64,000 nt of DNA from a virus: positions 1 to 64,000 of IMG/VR virus record IMGVR_UViG_3300032284_002843. One strand, written 5' to 3'. How positions within the stretch are numbered: the stretch's first letter is position 1; each line of letters starts with the position of its first letter. The position numbers and the translations under genes are program-made. The notes under the pieces are model-generated. The model was given only the letters and a program-made list of their open reading frames with translations, had not been told where the DNA came from and made no database searches. Positions 21,609-53,468 of this stretch are shown here, piece by piece.

Positions 21609-22292
21609 TTATTTAGCGCTTGGCCATAGCTTATACATTTCGCCACGAAGATATTGTTCAGCAGTACATCTTTTATTTGTTTCATGATCTGTAGCTTGAT
21701 TATGTTGAAACTGGATGGTTCGTTTCTTATCCCCTCTTTGTCCGGAACCAACCTGTTGCCGACGTTGATCATTTAGAACACTAGAGTTCGCATGACTAAC
21801 ACGGTTTTTCAACCTAATTTTTAACTCTTCAATAGCCTGATGAAAGCTATTTTTACGCGATCTTGTCTGTGCTGTGGTGGTTATACCACTTGGACGATGA
21901 TGTACACGGCAACTGGCCTGTACTTTATTTCTATTTTGCCCACCTGGGCCGGTCCCACTAAACCAAGATATGTCACAATCGGCTTCTTTAAACTCAAAAG
22001 AAACAGCCGGATTATAATCTAAAACTGCAACAGTAACAGTGCTGGTATGTGTCCTACCACGTTTTTCCGTAGGTGGTACCCGCTGTATTCTGTGCCCACC
22101 GGCTTCATTAAGCCAGTCAGTGTATTTAGCACCTGTTACTTTTAATACTATACGACCAGGAACGTCGTGGACGCAAGAAATCAGTCAATTAAGTTTCTGC
22201 GCCATCTTAATATAAGATTTGGCTAAATCCTGTACAAATAACTTACTGTCATCACCGCCTTCTGCGGCTCTAATCTCAACGAAAATATCCAT
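21609..22292 (-). CDS. prfA: Class I peptide chain release factor, RF1-type, lacking domain 1, with in-frame UGA at codon 36
   Basis: AGGAGG RBS; MDIFVEIRAAEGGDDS...KMAQKLN*LIS...EAGGHRIQRVPPTEKRGRTHTSTVTVAV...GPGGQNRNK...GSGQRGDKKRT; all in one frame, with TGA at 22185-22187. Confidence 0.88.
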
Positions 22293-22302
22293 GTTATCCT
22301 CC

Positions 22303-22521
22303 TTATAGCTTACAATGGAATTCTAATCCTCCTTGTTTGCATGTGAACAAATAAGGATTGAACTTATTTTGATGTAGAGTCAACCTCAAACCTTGCGGCA
22401 ATTCAACTACTAGGACATCTGGCCTTTTTGAGATAATTAAAGCACGCACTATTTTCTCATTATTTGCACACAGTACATCAATGTGCTCGGGTTCTTTAAT
22501 AATTCTCAAATTTCTCGGCAT
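22303..22521 (-). CDS. Small hypothetical protein (paralog of 30080-30301)
   Basis: GAGG RBS; shares V.C...V...I.SK....VELP.G...GLEF pattern. Confidence 0.6.
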   Translation of the reverse strand: MPRNLRIIKEPEHIDVLCANNEKIVRALIISKRPDVLVVELPQGLRLTLHQNKFNPYLFTCKQGGLEFHCKL

Positions 22522-29126: not shown

Positions 29127-29755
29127 TGAAATTATCTGACGTTCCTATAAAAGTAGGTATTGCTGTTCCTTGTCGTGATCAACTACATAGCATGTTTGCT
29201 TATAGTTTAGCCAACATGATTCAATACAATAGTTATAATAAAATCAAATCACAATTGTATATGTTGTCTGGCAGTTTAATAGCTGATCAAAGACACAAAC
29301 TAGCATATCAATGTCAAATAGATGATTGCAGTCATATTTTATGGCTGGATAGTGATATGATGTTTCCTCAAAATACTACCGAAAAATTACTGCAACATAA
29401 CAAGGCGATTGTAGCTTGTAACTATAGCACTCGTAGCGAACCAAGAAAATCAGTAGCATATTATAAAGTGGGCGAATGGGATAACTGGTTAAACAGTAAA
29501 ACAGCACCCGAGACTTTAACCGAAATATCAGCAATAGGTATGGGCTGCATGCTTGTTGACATAAAAGTTTTCTCAAAAATGGATGATCCATATTTTGAGG
29601 TTTCCTATAATCGTGAATTGCAAGAATGGATCGGTGAAGATTTTTATTTTTGCCAAAAAGCCGCTGCTTTGGGTTATAAAATTCTAGTAGATAACAAACT
29701 CAGCATGGAAATATCTCATTTGGGAACAACAGCATTTACATTGAATAGCTTATAA
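29126..29755 (+). CDS. GT-A fold glycosyltransferase
   Basis: HILWLDSDM (DxD), GMGCML, GEDFYFC, H.G motifs. Confidence 0.85.
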   Translation: MKLSDVPIKVGIAVPCRDQLHSMFAYSLANMIQYNSYNKIKSQLYMLSGSLIADQRHKLAYQCQIDDCSHILWLDSDMMFPQNTTEKLLQHNKAIVACNYSTRSEPRKSVAYYKVGEWDNWLNSKTAPETLTEISAIGMGCMLVDIKVFSKMDDPYFEVSYNRELQEWIGEDFYFCQKAAALGYKILVDNKLSMEISHLGTTAFTLNSL

Positions 29756-29762
29756 ATAAATT

Positions 29763-30083
29763 ATGTCTGTTAAACCAATACTGAATGAACTAAATCCCAA
29801 TGCAGCACAAGATACCCAACTATACAAGGGTAATATTGGCGAAACATCAACCGGTACAATATTTTGCATCAATCGTGCCGAAGATCTTGATCTAATAAAT
29901 GTTGCGATAGTCAGTAATGGTAATGTGCTTACAGATAATTGTTATGTATGCTACAATACTTTTGCATACTATGGACAATCAATTTATCTGCAGCAAATAT
30001 ATCTCGGCAGCGAAGATTCGATAATTGTCGAAAGTCAAAACGGCACAACGACCTTTACATATACTGGGTATCAATATCCCTAA
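29763..30083 (+). CDS. Hypothetical late protein
   Basis: TATAAATA 4 nt before ATG. Confidence 0.65.
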   Translation: MSVKPILNELNPNAAQDTQLYKGNIGETSTGTIFCINRAEDLDLINVAIVSNGNVLTDNCYVCYNTFAYYGQSIYLQQIYLGSEDSIIVESQNGTTTFTYTGYQYP

Positions 30084-35105: not shown

Positions 35106-35509
35106 TTTTTTGCCTTATCTTGATCTGGTTGTGTTGCAGATTCAATACCACCAAATATAGCCTGAGTATCTTGTTGCATTTGTTGTTCTGTGGCTTGAAT
35201 ATTTTGACTGGCTTGAACAGGAATATTTGTTTTCATTATATTCCTAACCGTGTTTGTATAACTGCTATTAGATGCATTTTGTCTAAGCTGCAAGTCTAAT
35301 ATTGCAGCATTTTGCTTAACCGCTGCTTCTTGTAAGCCAGCAATGGTTTCTTTTTGTATTTTAACAGCATCTTCCAGTTTGGCATTGTTCTGTTCCAAAA
35401 CTTTTATTTGATTTTGGCTCCAATCCCAATAGAAATAGCCTGCTATACCTAATAGCGCAATTACAATACCTAAAGCTAAAATTATTTTAGATTCAATGGA
35501 TGAAAACAT
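35102..35509 (-). CDS. Putative i-spanin
   Basis: N-terminal TM followed by coiled coil. Confidence 0.7.
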   Translation of the reverse strand: MFSSIESKIILALGIVIALLGIAGYFYWDWSQNQIKVLEQNNAKLEDAVKIQKETIAGLQEAAVKQNAAILDLQLRQNASNSSYTNTVRNIMKTNIPVQASQNIQATEQQMQQDTQAIFGGIESATQPDQDKAKK

Positions 35510-35522
35510 ACACTATTTAGTA

Positions 35523-35780: not shown

Positions 35781-36021
35781 TGGACCTCCATATTGATAAT
35801 TTATCTGCTTGTTCTTTTGTCTTAATACTATAAAAACTTTCGGCATAAGCAAGATTCAACAATACCATATGATCAGTATTATATATTTCGCAAATATGTC
35901 CAATAGATCCTGGTCCGTATGTCGAACGAAGAAACGGACTGTGTCTAATCTTATGCTGTTTGATAAAAATTCTTATGTCATTCAAATTTGAATGTATAAA
36001 AATTACATGTTTAGTCTTCAT
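35773..36021 (-). CDS. Hypothetical protein
   Basis: Start re-placed at MKTKH, overlapping upstream stop. Confidence 0.5.
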   Translation of the reverse strand: MKTKHVIFIHSNLNDIRIFIKQHKIRHSPFLRSTYGPGSIGHICEIYNTDHMVLLNLAYAESFYSIKTKEQADKLSIWRSNG

Positions 36022-36661
36022 CTGTCCAGTCACTTTCATCTGCCTCCTCGATATGTTCGTCACCGTCACCTATATAATCATTCTTACCAGTAAACCAGCC
36101 AATCAGGGGTTTCAAAGCTGATTTAGCCTTAGCCAACATCTGCTGTTCCTTTTCATCATACCATTTATAATAATCTTCATTGCTTTGCAATATCCTGTAT
36201 TCATTATGATACGAAAAGCTTAACAGTGCTGCATCTTCTTTAGTAAAAATATCACATATATAGAACTCTGTGCCACACCCACCTGTTATCTTTCGAATCT
36301 TGCTATAACGCATACTTTGCTGGTCCATGTACTGTTTCATAGATGCTAAGTTTCCATGAATCAACAACCTAGCATAAGGCCCTTCAGATTTTTTTAGCCG
36401 TTCCCTATCCTCCTTGGTCAACGGCCGCAGCTCTGCTTCATTGTCGTCATTGATTGTAAGCAAACAATGTTTAAATTTGATGCTACCTTTGGTGTGGGGA
36501 TTATCACTTGTTTCTTTGGTACTCCACGGAATATTGGCATCAAGATGATTAATGTAAAAAGATTTTCCATTTGCCTTAATCGTCCACATAGGAATACTCG
36601 GATCCTCTAGGTGTTTCTTGTTAAAGTGGAAAACTGCTGTATCACATGCTAATTCAACCAT
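36011..36661 (-). CDS. Hypothetical protein, first gene downstream of the putative amber attenuator
   Basis: AAGGAG RBS; 216 aa. Confidence 0.75.
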   Translation of the reverse strand: MVELACDTAVFHFNKKHLEDPSIPMWTIKANGKSFYINHLDANIPWSTKETSDNPHTKGSIKFKHCLLTINDDNEAELRPLTKEDRERLKKSEGPYARLLIHGNLASMKQYMDQQSMRYSKIRKITGGCGTEFYICDIFTKEDAALLSFSYHNEYRILQSNEDYYKWYDEKEQQMLAKAKSALKPLIGWFTGKNDYIGDGDEHIEEADESDWTDED

Positions 36662-36678
36662 TTGTTTCTCCTTTCATG

Positions 36679-36777
36679 TTAAAAATGGCCAACAAAAAAC
36701 CTGCAAGGCGAATAGCCGTGCAGGTTCATCAAAATCAAACTAAAATAAATTAAAACCTAGTGCTCTTTTAACATCAT
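36679..36777 (-). promoter_or_regulatory. Leader mini-ORF with in-frame UAG (codon 7) whose readthrough spans a terminator
   Basis: ATG ATG TTA AAA GAG CAC TAG GTT...CAT TTT TAA; TAAATA 5 nt upstream (36783-88). Confidence 0.6.
36692..36726 (-). terminator. Intrinsic terminator within the leader ORF
   Basis: AACCTGCA-cGGC-tattc-GCCt-TGCAGGTT followed by TTTTGTT. Confidence 0.8.
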
Positions 36778-36791
36778 AATCCTATTTAGTT

Positions 36792-36865
36792 TGGTGCTTC
36801 GTGTGAGATTTGAACTCACCTTCGCAGTTTTAGAGACTGCTGGTCCGCCACTGACCCAACGAAGC
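36792..36865 (-). tRNA. Amber suppressor tRNA (anticodon CUA)
   Basis: GCTTCGT/ACGAAGC acceptor, A73-CCA; D stem GGTC/GACC; GCAGT-CT CTA AA-ACTGC; GTGAG-TTCAAAT-CTCAC. Confidence 0.9.
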
Positions 36866-36879
36866 GTATTGTTAATATA

Positions 36880-38061
36880 TTAGGTATAAACCGTGGTGTC
36901 AACCTTATCTAGCAACTGTTCTTTGGTAGCAGTATAGCCACTTTTAGCCCAGATGTGTTTCAACGCTTGGATAACTTTGCCATAATGCGGGCCAGGTTTC
37001 ATGCCCAGCTTCATTAAATCAAAGCCATTAACTGGAAACACAGGGATAGGCCATTCTGCCAAGACAGCTTGATCAAAGGCATCAATATCAAAGATTTTGG
37101 CCATTTTGCATACCCAATCTCGTCTAACGCCATCTACAGCCAACAAATAATAGGGATTAAAATCGGTTTTATACTGATGAGCCTCTACAAACTCAGCCCA
37201 ATCCTGTTCCTCTTTACTGGTTTTCCATTTCTTCAGCAGCTCTCTGGTGATTACGGGTCCATACAACGTATGCAGAATCGCAATAGGATCAGGCTCGCGG
37301 CTGTGCAGTCTTTCAGCGTTATAGATCCAGTCACATTCTGAAGGCAAATCAATAAATTCTGCAACATCATACTGATGGATTTGCAAAATCATTTTTGGAC
37401 CATATGGTCCTGCTAGAATCTGCCGGATCTCACTCCATACACGCTCACGGCTGATAGATTTTAAGCCAGCGGCATTAGCCATAATATGCTTGGCGTCAGC
37501 AGGATACTCCGTTCGATCACGTTCTGGATCAATGCCATACCTAGCACGGAACCTGAACCAACGAAGGATTCGTAGATAATCCTCTTTGATACGTTGATCA
37601 GCATTGCCAACAAAACGCACGCGATAATTCAGCAAATCATTATATCCGTCAAAGGGGTCGATCAGTACACCGTCGAAGGTAAAACTCATAGCGTTGATCG
37701 TAAAGTCACGCCTTGCGAGATCTTCCAACCAATCTCTCGTATATGCCACAGTGGCTCGCCTGCCGTCCGTTGCAACATCCAAGCGCAGGCTGGTGATTTC
37801 ATATACTCCACTGTCCAGTACCACCGTTATAGTACCGTGATCAATACCGGTGGGAATATGTCGAATGTCCGCATTTTGATAGATAGAGATCTGTTCAACA
37901 GGATCAGCGTCGGTGCAGAGATCAATATCCTTAGGCTGTTTACCAGCCAAGTGATCTCGCACACAACCGCCCACAAATCTCAAATCAAAACCTTGAGTTT
38001 GAAAGAGATTACGAAGATTCTGCAAATCTTGATTAAGTAACGGATCAATATTAAAAATCAT
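36880..38061 (-). CDS. cca: tRNA nucleotidyltransferase (CCA-adding enzyme, class II)
   Basis: VGGCVRD, KDIDL, DLARRDFTINAM, EDYLRILR motifs. Confidence 0.92.
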   Translation of the reverse strand: MIFNIDPLLNQDLQNLRNLFQTQGFDLRFVGGCVRDHLAGKQPKDIDLCTDADPVEQISIYQNADIRHIPTGIDHGTITVVLDSGVYEITSLRLDVATDGRRATVAYTRDWLEDLARRDFTINAMSFTFDGVLIDPFDGYNDLLNYRVRFVGNADQRIKEDYLRILRWFRFRARYGIDPERDRTEYPADAKHIMANAAGLKSISRERVWSEIRQILAGPYGPKMILQIHQYDVAEFIDLPSECDWIYNAERLHSREPDPIAILHTLYGPVITRELLKKWKTSKEEQDWAEFVEAHQYKTDFNPYYLLAVDGVRRDWVCKMAKIFDIDAFDQAVLAEWPIPVFPVNGFDLMKLGMKPGPHYGKVIQALKHIWAKSGYTATKEQLLDKVDTTVYT

Positions 38062-38116
38062 GCCAGTAGTTTAGCATGATTTAACATGATGTCAACCATT
38101 TGGGCAAGTTATTTTA

Positions 38117-40529: not shown

Positions 40530-40563
40530 GACAAATACAGATTCTAAATGAAATAAATATATC

Positions 40564-41130
40564 ATGACTAACCATAGCTATATCAGCCTATCAGTTCCCA
40601 AGGACTTAGATGAAACCGAAGCCAAACTTTGGTATCAAACTGTTTTAGAAAGCGCACCAGAAGGAACCTGTGTCAGTACTGAAATACAACCAAATAACAA
40701 AGCCGTACGCTTTTATATGGAAAGCCGCGGTAGTATGAGACGCTATGTTGTGGTTTTAAGCAGAGATTTAATGGGCGAAGAAGCTAACAAAATAGCCGAA
40801 GCTCTAGATCAAAAGCTTCCAGAAGTTGATTTTGAAATAGATTGGAGCCAGCAACCAGAAACATTTGGCAGAGCTGTAGAACTACGTGAAGACACTCTTA
40901 AAGCAATGGCATTAGAAGCTAGCAAAAGAGCACATAATCGCTGGGTAAATGAAAAAATCAATGAAGGTTGGAGATATGGACAACGTGGCAACAGTGCAGG
41001 TAAAGTGAGCCCAATGTGTGTTGCCTGGGAAAATCTTTCAGAAACATATAGAAGAAACGAATATAAAAGAATGCTAGGTTTGTTAGAAGTACTCAATGAA
41101 ATGGGTATGGTCATATCTAAACAGAAATAA
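40564..41130 (+). CDS. RyR-repeat domain protein
   Basis: AHNRW..EK..EGWRYG......P.C.V.WE.L.E. Confidence 0.75.
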   Translation: MTNHSYISLSVPKDLDETEAKLWYQTVLESAPEGTCVSTEIQPNNKAVRFYMESRGSMRRYVVVLSRDLMGEEANKIAEALDQKLPEVDFEIDWSQQPETFGRAVELREDTLKAMALEASKRAHNRWVNEKINEGWRYGQRGNSAGKVSPMCVAWENLSETYRRNEYKRMLGLLEVLNEMGMVISKQK

Positions 41131-52455: not shown

Positions 52456-52568
52456 CCCATATGTCCTCCTATGTTCAATGGTAGATTCTATTTATAGATG
52501 TTAGGTTAAAAAACATGCAATATATCATAAATATTTTACCAGAAACTTTATTTTTGATGGACTAGACA

Positions 52569-53468
52569 ATGAAACTTCTTGATGTTCTCGACAGTGACCC
52601 TATACAAGTTAGTATGACTCAACCAACTATGGAAAATTTTGAAATAGACGAAAAAACCAAGACCCCAGATAGGTCAGGACATTATTGGTCTAGCAGCGGC
52701 GCTTTGCGTCACTATATTGAACGTAATTATGGCGGTGATGTTACCTGTCAAAAAGCACAAAAGGTTAAAGGCGATGCTCACGCAAGGAAAAAAGTAAGAA
52801 ACGCTGCAAGCTTTTATCAAAATCTACACTGTGTAGGTACAAAACAAGTTAAAGAAGAAGATAATAATCAAGGCGCTGCTTTGACAATTTTTGACATAGA
52901 TGATACTCTATTCAAAACTGATGCTAAGGTGCATGTTACAAACAAAGCTGGAGAACGCAAAGCATTATCTAATAAAGAATTTAACAACTATAAACTTGCC
53001 GATGACGAAGAATTTGATTTTGGCGAATTTAAAGATGCTGAAAAATTTAATAAAACCAGTACACCCATTCAAAATATTTGGCGCACAGCTCAGAACACAT
53101 TAGAAAACATAGGCAAAAGACCAGGCAGTCGTGTGGTGATTGTTACTGCAAGAGGTGATCTAGATAACAAAGATCTATTTCTTGATACTTTTAGACAACA
53201 TGGGTTAGACATGAATAAAGTACATGTTTATAGAGCTGGTAATATCAAAAACGGTAATAGTGCTGACAAGAAGAAAATTGTAATTAGAAATTTACTTGAG
53301 AATGGTAATTTTACCGAAGTACGCTTGTTTGATGATCATGAAGAAAATCTAGCAGAGTTTCTAAAGCTTAGCCAAGAATTTCCGGGCGTGATCTTTAAGG
53401 CTTTTCCTGTTAGTCACGCAGGAAAAATTGCACAGCCAATAGTTACCGTTGGAAATATTGAATCATAA
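52569..53468 (+). CDS. HAD-superfamily phosphatase with N-terminal extension
   Basis: IFDIDDTL, VTAR, K, FDD..NL. Confidence 0.8.
   Translation: MKLLDVLDSDPIQVSMTQPTMENFEIDEKTKTPDRSGHYWSSSGALRHYIERNYGGDVTCQKAQKVKGDAHARKKVRNAASFYQNLHCVGTKQVKEEDNNQGAALTIFDIDDTLFKTDAKVHVTNKAGERKALSNKEFNNYKLADDEEFDFGEFKDAEKFNKTSTPIQNIWRTAQNTLENIGKRPGSRVVIVTARGDLDNKDLFLDTFRQHGLDMNKVHVYRAGNIKNGNSADKKKIVIRNLLENGNFTEVRLFDDHEENLAEFLKLSQEFPGVIFKAFPVSHAGKIAQPIVTVGNIES

Follow-up and report, generated by a model that had tools for sequence, protein, structure and literature searches.

A putative UAG-decoding leader attenuator between an amber suppressor tRNA and a conserved gene in a fragment of a very large phage

Layout of the suppressor tRNA locus

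We analyzed the first 64 kb (hereafter, the window) of the 136,279-base IMG/VR record IMGVR_UViG_3300032284_002843, a fragment of a very large lake phage that was judged ~32% complete. Our subject is a short region of the window in which an amber suppressor tRNA (tRNA-CUA) is followed by a small reading frame ending in TAG, an intrinsic terminator, and a gene that we call X. From the sequence alone, an earlier note had described this order of elements, with a TAAATA element behind the tRNA, 25 open codons after the TAG, and a second stop at 36679, and had proposed that they form a transcription attenuator keyed to stop-codon decoding. The description is correct in every element and coordinate. 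Among 50,697 phage records, megablast detected no close relatives of the stretch 35900–38100. All features of the locus lie on the minus strand and are listed from high to low coordinates.

36880–38061, minus strand: gene for a CCA-adding tRNA nucleotidyltransferase, cca (Pfam PolyA_pol, E 3e-30; phrog_2244, E 7e-54)
36874–36902, minus strand: sigma-70-type promoter TTGACA-17-TATATT, 11/12 matches, directly 5' of the tRNA
36792–36865, minus strand: tRNA-CUA (amber suppressor), 74 nucleotides (nt), CCA encoded (ARAGORN; Rfam RF00005, 59.2 bits)
36783–36788, minus strand: TAAATA, a −10-like element, 5 nt 5' of the leader ATG
36757–36777, minus strand: leader mini-open reading frame (mini-ORF) ATG ATG TTA AAA GAG CAC TAG, read directly from the strand
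36679–36756, minus strand: continuation of the leader frame beyond the UAG, with 25 sense codons across the terminator and then TAA (36681–36679)
36692–36726, minus strand: intrinsic terminator AACCUGCA-c-GGC-uauuc-GCC-u-UGCAGGUU plus U-tract, predicted by folding (ΔG −16.8 kcal/mol)
36668–36674, minus strand: Shine-Dalgarno (SD) sequence AAAGGAG of X, 6 nt 5' of the X ATG and outside the hairpin
36011–36661, minus strand: gene X, 216 amino acids; the position of its ATG is an in-frame TAG in 149 of 159 unique relatives

The cca product shares up to ~42% identity with proteins of jumbo phages of Caulobacter, Brevundimonas, and Agrobacterium, and the −35 hexamer of the tRNA promoter sits within the 3' end of its gene. 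An identical TTGACA-17-TATATT promoter precedes the tRNA-CUA of one relative (L250), and a search of IMG/VR with the exact pattern of the window tRNA gave no match. The 14-nt stretch after the tRNA consists of AAC, TAAATA (36788–36783), and GGATT. The leader UAG is codon 7 (codon 6 when counted from the second ATG), its next base is G, and it lies 30 nt from the hairpin. The hairpin itself, AACCUGCA..UGCAGGUU, spans 36726–36698 and is followed by U6 to 36694; the second stop of the leader frame lies 20 nt 5' of the X start. When the 87-nt leader was folded, the terminator hairpin formed part of the minimum free energy (MFE) structure (−24.3 kcal/mol, z = −3.88), which was equaled by 1 of 200 shuffled sequences; for a 136-nt version z was −4.12, equaled by 0 of 200. 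For the 87-nt leader, the terminator is retained in the MFE and centroid structures alike, and neither contains a rival pairing with its 5' arm. The absence of a competing antiterminator from these structures fits a mechanism based on occlusion by the ribosome.

The TAAATA element belongs to a signal that is common in this phage and that we take to resemble the T4 late promoter TATAAATA. The 136-kb record holds 97 copies, of which 40 fall in the 6.6% that is intergenic and 47 lie at most 150 nt 5' of an ORF start on the same strand. Many genes begin with TAAATA-N4-7-ATG and have no SD sequence, for example those at 29763, 40564, 26995, and 35509 (in the window, 29752–29765, 40553–40566, and 35507–35519), and this spacing suggests that many late mRNAs of the record are leaderless. 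The TAAATA-GGATT-ATG of the leader matches this gene-start pattern exactly. In relatives, either TAAATA or a full TTGACA-17-TATAAT/TATAAA promoter is found 4–8 nt before the leader ATG, with 7 nt separating TTGACA-17-TATAAT from the ATG in L077 and TTGACT-17-TATAAA from the ATG in L122. Such spacing fits leaderless starts, and the leader mRNA would be leaderless or nearly so.

Amber codons at the start of X and in its leaders

Scans of IMG/VR with X revealed 243 relatives, and those of metagenome contigs another 554; from each set the best 80 were kept. Extra IMG/VR scans with the X proteins of L090 and of L103 contributed 36 further unique loci. We removed duplicates by identical flanks and dropped four rows, two because the match was distant and partial (L163 and L164) and two because the contig ended within X (L130 and L148), which left a final set of 159 unique loci (relatives L002–L316).

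In 149 of these 159 loci, X starts as SD-ATG-NNN-TAG. Among the first 123 unique loci, exactly one codon separates ATG and TAG in 93 of the 113 that were scored. The amber codon aligns with the ATG of X in the window (36659–36661) and is followed by ATT/GTA-GAA-TAT-GCT-TGT. The base after it was A in 103 and G in 11 of the 114 TAG loci scored among the first 123, and a pyrimidine in none, as compared with T or C after 11 of 19 true TAG stops in the window's own record and after 24 of 56 in the related loci.

The suppressor usually accompanies the amber codon. In 64 of the first 80 loci, ARAGORN placed a tRNA-CUA upstream of X and in the same orientation, and Rfam together with a reading of the anticodon loop added eight, giving at least 72 of the 80 IMG/VR loci; among the remaining loci without a call, five have less than 210 nt of upstream sequence. 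The tRNA usually lies 15–400 nt upstream of X, and in 13 loci the spacer is just 15–40 nt. Judged from these sequences, X would almost always need amber suppression, and it almost always sits behind the predicted suppressor; its ATG-NNN-TAG start may be viewed as a one-codon translational lock with the key, tRNA-CUA, placed next to it. Database proteins read M-x-Q-I-E at this position, and P0026 is letter for letter the TAG-to-Q translation of L104. Q is thus a convention of the gene caller, and we rejected it as evidence that glutamine is the inserted amino acid.

Many of these tRNAs have unusual D-arms and were missed by ARAGORN (L085 at 1284–1358, L019, L026, L029, L031, L033, L051, L070, L074, and L127). 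That of L085 was called by neither ARAGORN nor Rfam and is assigned from its MFE structure, a cloverleaf whose anticodon loop contains CUA. Such misses imply that surveys under-count suppressor tRNAs in these phages. Some of the spacers between tRNA and X (among L004, L005, L010, L011, L015, L016, and L020) contain either a small ORF rich in Cys (..LRGKK..L.C.CC..) or an ORF resembling a lipoprotein gene (MRYILMVFALIAAGCSNK..), and the small spacer ORF of L005 continues without a change of frame into the ATG-TCA-TAG with which X begins. A freshwater-2 RNA (Rfam RF02980) is present near the tRNA-CUA and X in L019 (2714–2794, 78 bits) and L026 (3479–3559, 70 bits), in both cases upstream of the tRNA-CUA and on the opposite strand.

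Ten of the 159 unique loci, the window included, have an X without the early amber codon. All 10 carry a TAG mini-ORF upstream of X; in 8 of the 10, no further stop interrupts its frame until it has passed a strong terminator that directly precedes X. The earlier note had named an in-frame UAG and an open frame in homologous loci as the test of its proposal, and this comparison, set beforehand, came out in favor of the attenuator. In the eight loci, the TAG is followed by a purine, lies 23–89 nt before X, and precedes a hairpin of −16 to −25 kcal/mol with a U-tract. The leaders read as follows.

Window: ATG ATG TTA AAA GAG CAC TAG; amber-less X, frame open across the terminator
L077: TTGACA-17-TATAAT, 7 nt, ATG AAA CAG TTA TAG; leader frame in frame with X
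L085: ATG CTA GAA TTG TAG
L090: TATAAATA-AAAT-ATG ATC AAT ACA TAG
L091: ATG AAC AGC TAG; leader frame in frame with X
L103: ATG ATC TAG
L122: ATG AGC TAG
L250: ATG ACA TAG

L250 was found by a later scan and showed the predicted layout. L286 (1040–2073) presents the operon version, in which CTAAATA-CATA-ATG CAA TAG is followed by a terminator, an SD sequence, a Pth2-like gene, and then directly by an amber-less X. The Pth2-like gene, assigned by a PF01981 match (E 0.0011) that is below the family cut-off, itself starts ATG AAA TAG. Since X follows it directly, both genes would belong to one amber-gated operon. In L082, the sequence ATG GCG TAT TCG TAG and a weak hairpin with UUUUCUU stand before a 104-amino acid ORF that precedes X. 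A leader and an amber codon in X occur together in L028, L058, L140, L157, and L218. In L122 and L128, the X without an N-terminal amber has an in-frame TAG at codon 88, between its two domains (context ACA TAG ATT GAA), in addition to the UAG leader.

In the leaders, the UAG comes after 1–9 codons, none of which they have in common, and we found no run of regulatory sense codons of the kind that marks trp/his leaders. Across 11 leaders compared, the UAG lies 20–65 nt before the hairpin, and 19–34 codons must stay open for the frame to pass the U-tract. The stretch between UAG and hairpin is U-rich in the window and not in the other lineages; what is conserved is the UAG plus purine, not a U-rich pause region.

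Specificity of the layout, proposed mechanism, and alternatives

To define the background, we searched the window's own record and every unique locus, on either strand, for hairpins of ΔG at most −14 kcal/mol followed by at least 5 T in 7. Fourteen such terminators precede X by up to 110 nt. Of these, 13 have a TAG leader of 1–9 codons, with a purine after the TAG and a frame that is open across the hairpin. Elsewhere, TAG leaders were found at 2 of 197 terminators, one being the operon leader of L286 and the other a case in L244 on the opposite strand, where the TAG abuts the hairpin; mini-ORFs ending in TAA and TGA accompany 12 and 7 of the 197, respectively. Among background mini-ORFs, 16 of 70 were open across the hairpin, as were 0 of the 15 ending in TAG. 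At this rate, the open frame of the window alone would be unremarkable, and its significance comes from the comparison. Within the 136-kb record, 1 of 31 terminator-like sites, that of the window, has a TAG mini-ORF open across the hairpin.

The hairpin sequences of the window, L077, L085, L090, L091, L103, L122, and the L028 group are unrelated to one another, which amounts to ~8 hairpin lineages. In a maximum likelihood tree of 50 X proteins, seven amber-less loci fall on one side of a branch with 93/93 support, with end branches of 0.24–0.69; L077 is located elsewhere, beside an X of the amber type, and loci with both amber and leader occupy three places. The unrelated hairpins and the tree positions indicate that the layout has arisen more than once or was kept while its surroundings changed. 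The two forms of gating, the third-codon UAG and the UAG leader, appear to replace each other within the X family.

These observations bear on a plainer explanation, namely that the hairpin does no more than end the tRNA or cca-tRNA transcript and that the UAG mini-ORF is a relic without a part in regulation: an insertion carrying the terminator and a new SD-ATG would have pushed aside the original start of X. A tRNA with its own promoter requires a terminator, and the TAG GTT TTA of the window leader resembles the TAG GTA GAA TTA at the X start of relatives (an ancestral ATG-NNN-TAG-GTT). A relic, however, would not be expected to keep 19–34 codons open in ~8 lineages with unrelated hairpins when the background rate is 16 of 70, nor would it account for TAG leaders at 13 of 14 terminators before X versus 2 of 197 elsewhere. 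In L090, L091, and L103, moreover, the upstream gene is divergent, and the hairpin stands between the promoter and X with no co-directional gene or tRNA upstream. The hairpin there is therefore not merely a tRNA/cca terminator, the alternative that the earlier note had held in reserve. We regard the relic explanation as very unlikely.

The layout, its recurrence, and its specificity can be read directly from the loci. From them we infer a transcription attenuator of the leader-peptide type that takes its signal from how UAG is decoded, with transcription start, leader translation, termination, suppression, and ribosome-polymerase coupling as its presumed steps, and on comparative grounds we give this reading a probability of roughly 0.7. 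Transcripts starting at TAAATA, or continuing from the tRNA promoter, would carry a leader of 6–7 codons ending in UAG. Where RF1 terminates translation at this codon, no ribosome would follow the RNA polymerase, and the hairpin would fold and stop transcription at the U-tract before X. Where tRNA-CUA inserts an amino acid instead, the ribosome would enter the 5' arm of the hairpin and prevent it from folding, and the polymerase would continue into X, which would be translated from its own SD sequence. A read-through ribosome that halts 20 nt before the X start may additionally aid initiation there. The output would be the same as that of the third-codon UAG in most relatives, in that X is made only under working suppression, and expression of X probably requires an active tRNA-CUA encoded by the phage itself.

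The regulated gene in this mechanism is X (36011–36661). The earlier note had extended the target to the downstream genes running toward a spanin/holin cassette, and this part of the proposal does not hold: a separate TAAATA element belongs to each of the later genes, at 35509, 34715, and 33782.

The position of the read-through frames raises the question of whether the leader acts on translation, with read-through ribosomes reinitiating at X or producing an N-terminally extended X and the hairpin slowing or blocking the rest. In 9 of 11 leaders, the frame reaches its second stop at a position from −30 to +10 relative to the X start, and in L250 it does so at +1; in L077 and L091 the leader is in frame with X. 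Such a mode would predict this. The SD sequence of X is strong and lies outside the hairpin, however. A U-tract with at least 5 T in 7 also comes after each of the hairpins; this feature is characteristic of intrinsic terminators, and control of translation would have no need of it. We consider translational control by itself unlikely, although it is the main rival; the two modes are not exclusive, and coupling may add to the effect of the attenuator.

The distance between UAG and hairpin argues in turn against a sensor of RF1 activity, in which slow termination at UAG would report depletion or inhibition of the host RF1 or the action of a phage RF1-like protein. Decoding of UAG is a constant competition between RF1 and the tRNA, and the same record encodes a candidate factor. 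At ~21609–22320 (minus strand) of the window lies an RF1-type class I release factor with RVPPTE../GPGGQ (PPT, GGQ) motifs (PF00472, 59 bits; PF03462, 76 bits), in which most of the N-terminal region is missing and one in-frame TGA is present; this phage factor could compete with the suppressor tRNA at UAG. A ribosome stalled at a UAG 20–65 nt away would nevertheless leave the hairpin uncovered, the open frame past the UAG would be needless for sensing RF1 and yet is kept, and the tight linkage to tRNA-CUA favors suppression as the signal. We therefore judge an RF1 sensor to be highly improbable.

Several points weigh against the attenuator. Its support is comparative and comes from sequence; the one sequencing run listed as containing the stretch is of DNA and may be its source, and no RNA run is listed. 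Many of the loci are related, so that the counts, which represent ~8 hairpin lineages, are not fully independent. The leader ATG has no SD sequence and would require leaderless initiation; transcripts from the tRNA promoter offer just a weak AGGA 5 nt before the second ATG, and L250 lacks a −10-like element directly before its leader ATG. With so short a leader, a ribosome may not stay close enough to the polymerase, and the strong SD sequence of X means that read-through of any other origin would also express X. In L310, a strong terminator stands before X without a leader, with a promoter-like TATAAT after it, and the hairpin of L082 folds no better than its shuffles (z = −0.15). Lastly, the hairpin of the window may also end the tRNA transcript, a role that is compatible with attenuation.

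Genetic code, known systems, and protein X

A suppressor tRNA could also serve a genome in which TAG has been reassigned. The window's own record contains 133 ORFs of at least 100 amino acids with 88% coverage, and their stops are TAA in 92, TGA in 21, and TAG in 20 cases. Coding density was 0.884 under code 11, 0.902 with TAG read as sense, and 0.923 in the control with TGA read as sense; the related loci likewise showed no gain from TAG as sense beyond the TGA control. There is also no excess of TAG-interrupted genes in the record, in which a mini-ORF, a stop, and a long ORF follow one another with TAG 7, TAA 13, and TGA 12 times. Of the marks of recoded phages, we thus found a phage-encoded tRNA-CUA, and neither many genes with in-frame TAG nor a coding density restored by reading it as sense. 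These genomes use the standard code, and so, at least across the available third of the phage genome, the tRNA-CUA does not serve a recoded genome. At 52533–52571 (plus strand) of the window, TAAATA is followed by ATG GAC TAG ACA ATG AAA, in frame with a 299-amino acid gene at 52569. This start looks like that of X (ATG-NNN-TAG-A) but has an ATG two codons on and may be due to chance.

In the pyrBI and pyrE operons of Escherichia coli, a promoter is followed by a leader frame that runs through an intrinsic terminator, with no antiterminator. The terminator cannot fold while a ribosome trails the polymerase closely, and what is sensed there is the UTP-dependent pausing of the polymerase. The earlier note had likened the phage locus to pyrBI, and at the level of sequence the likeness holds for the promoter, the short ORF, and the terminator in its frame, which makes these operons the nearest natural kin in architecture. 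It does not extend to nucleotide-dependent pausing as the signal, since in the phage loci the signal would be an early UAG read by the tRNA or by a release factor, with 1–9 codons to the decision and a seemingly leaderless mRNA. In the phage layout, leader-peptide attenuation would take a variant form that responds to stop-codon suppression. Early in-frame stops that sense their own decoding are likewise found in prfB, where a +1 frameshift at UGA senses RF2, and in tnaC, where a ribosome stalled at the tnaC stop codon keeps Rho from acting; a suppressor tRNA plays no part in either system, and neither has an intrinsic terminator in the leader frame.

The closest counterpart in logic is an engineered one. 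In the 'Uaa transcriptional switch', as described in a review, a TAG is placed in a leader peptide, and an orthogonal tRNA-CUA controls transcription downstream, so that, as proposed here, translation of the leader past the UAG is required (PMC6412442). According to the same text, that switch is synthetic, uses trp/tna leaders, and acts by rut unmasking in a Rho-dependent manner (PMC6412442), whereas the phage version would be natural, would use an intrinsic terminator, and would bring its own tRNA. Recoded phages are reported to carry suppressor tRNAs and a 'code change module' upstream of lysis genes (10.1101/2021.08.26.457843). They share with our loci the placement of tRNA-CUA and translation genes beside late or lysis genes and the idea that in-frame stops delay expression, and they differ in having many in-frame stops in many genes (10.1101/2021.08.26.457843), whereas here the code is standard and a single UAG is conserved in position and appears regulatory. 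The available portions of the recoded-phage accounts (10.1101/2021.08.26.457843; PMC13037316) do not describe a leader/terminator device. A full-text search of the literature, covering main texts, yielded no natural attenuator that depends on amber decoding and turned up only the engineered analogue.

Taken together, we are inclined to think that the suppressor tRNA of standard-code giant phages is a trans-acting regulatory RNA with a small regulon rather than a step toward a new code. X would be gated in two interchangeable ways, on translation by the codon-3 UAG and on transcription by the UAG leader over the terminator; some lineages would stack both, L286 would put the Pth2-like gene and X under one leader, and decoding of UAG would serve as a natural checkpoint signal. 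Many standard-code phages carry suppressor tRNAs without visible use, and the device offers them a role, as the key to a lock before one conserved gene. It is small, comprising ~100 nt and one tRNA, and the evolutionary shift between translational and transcriptional gating may be readable directly in sequences. If the mechanism is correct, leader-peptide attenuation gains stop-codon decoding as an input, beyond the supply of amino acids or nucleotides, and a switch designed by synthetic biologists acquires a natural counterpart. X is thereby marked as a protein that the phage would want only under working suppression.

The X family comprises at least 1626 clusters at 90% identity, with lengths of 166–211 amino acids, all of them unnamed. 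Among 48 diverse members, the first 93 residues show a mean identity of 73%. In X, a highly conserved N-terminal β domain is followed by one of the ferredoxin-like (ACT/RRM) type and then by an acidic tail, and AlphaFold modeled the protein with a predicted local distance difference test (pLDDT) score of 86.5 for the whole protein and 92.6 for the N-domain. In these models, residues 94–175 adopt what appears to be a generic ferredoxin-like (ACT/RRM) arrangement (best VIA-align Z 7.5), and the N-domain, with a best VIA-align Z of 4.0 to an OB-like fold, matches no solved fold convincingly. The family is represented in neither Pfam nor PHROG. Comparison with the PDB gave nothing below E 0.2 by sequence and nothing at E ≤ 1e-3 by Foldseek with the whole model or the N-domain; ESM Atlas returned no usable match, BFVD just an uncharacterized homologue, and a search for longer or fused forms only unnamed proteins of the size of X.

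The neighbors of X are related to translation, comprising tRNA-CUA, transfer-messenger RNA (tmRNA; 16 of the 80 first loci), cca in the window, and the Pth2-like gene of L286. We found no PTH2 match in the window's own record and no tmRNA in the window. The 16 of 80 IMG/VR loci (L029, L036–L044, L047, L050, L053, L054, L059, and L076) have the tmRNA ~30–120 nt past the end of X, and L081 has it upstream of X instead; that of L029 belongs to the β-proteobacterial or a permuted Rfam class. We considered X as an SmpB-like partner of tmRNA, as an inhibitor of RF1, and as a ribosome binder resembling the C-terminal part of RelA, and dropped all of these, as nothing that was tested lent them support.

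One relative comes from a cultured phage. In Rhizobium phage RHph_I1_18 (L167; MN988519.1), an unannotated ORF at 1478–1814 begins ATG AGT GAG TTC ATG TAG AAC GAA.. and encodes the N-domain of X alone, in 76 codons past the TAG, with an annotated tRNA-Pyl(cta) 12 nt after it. This locus may provide an experimental handle.

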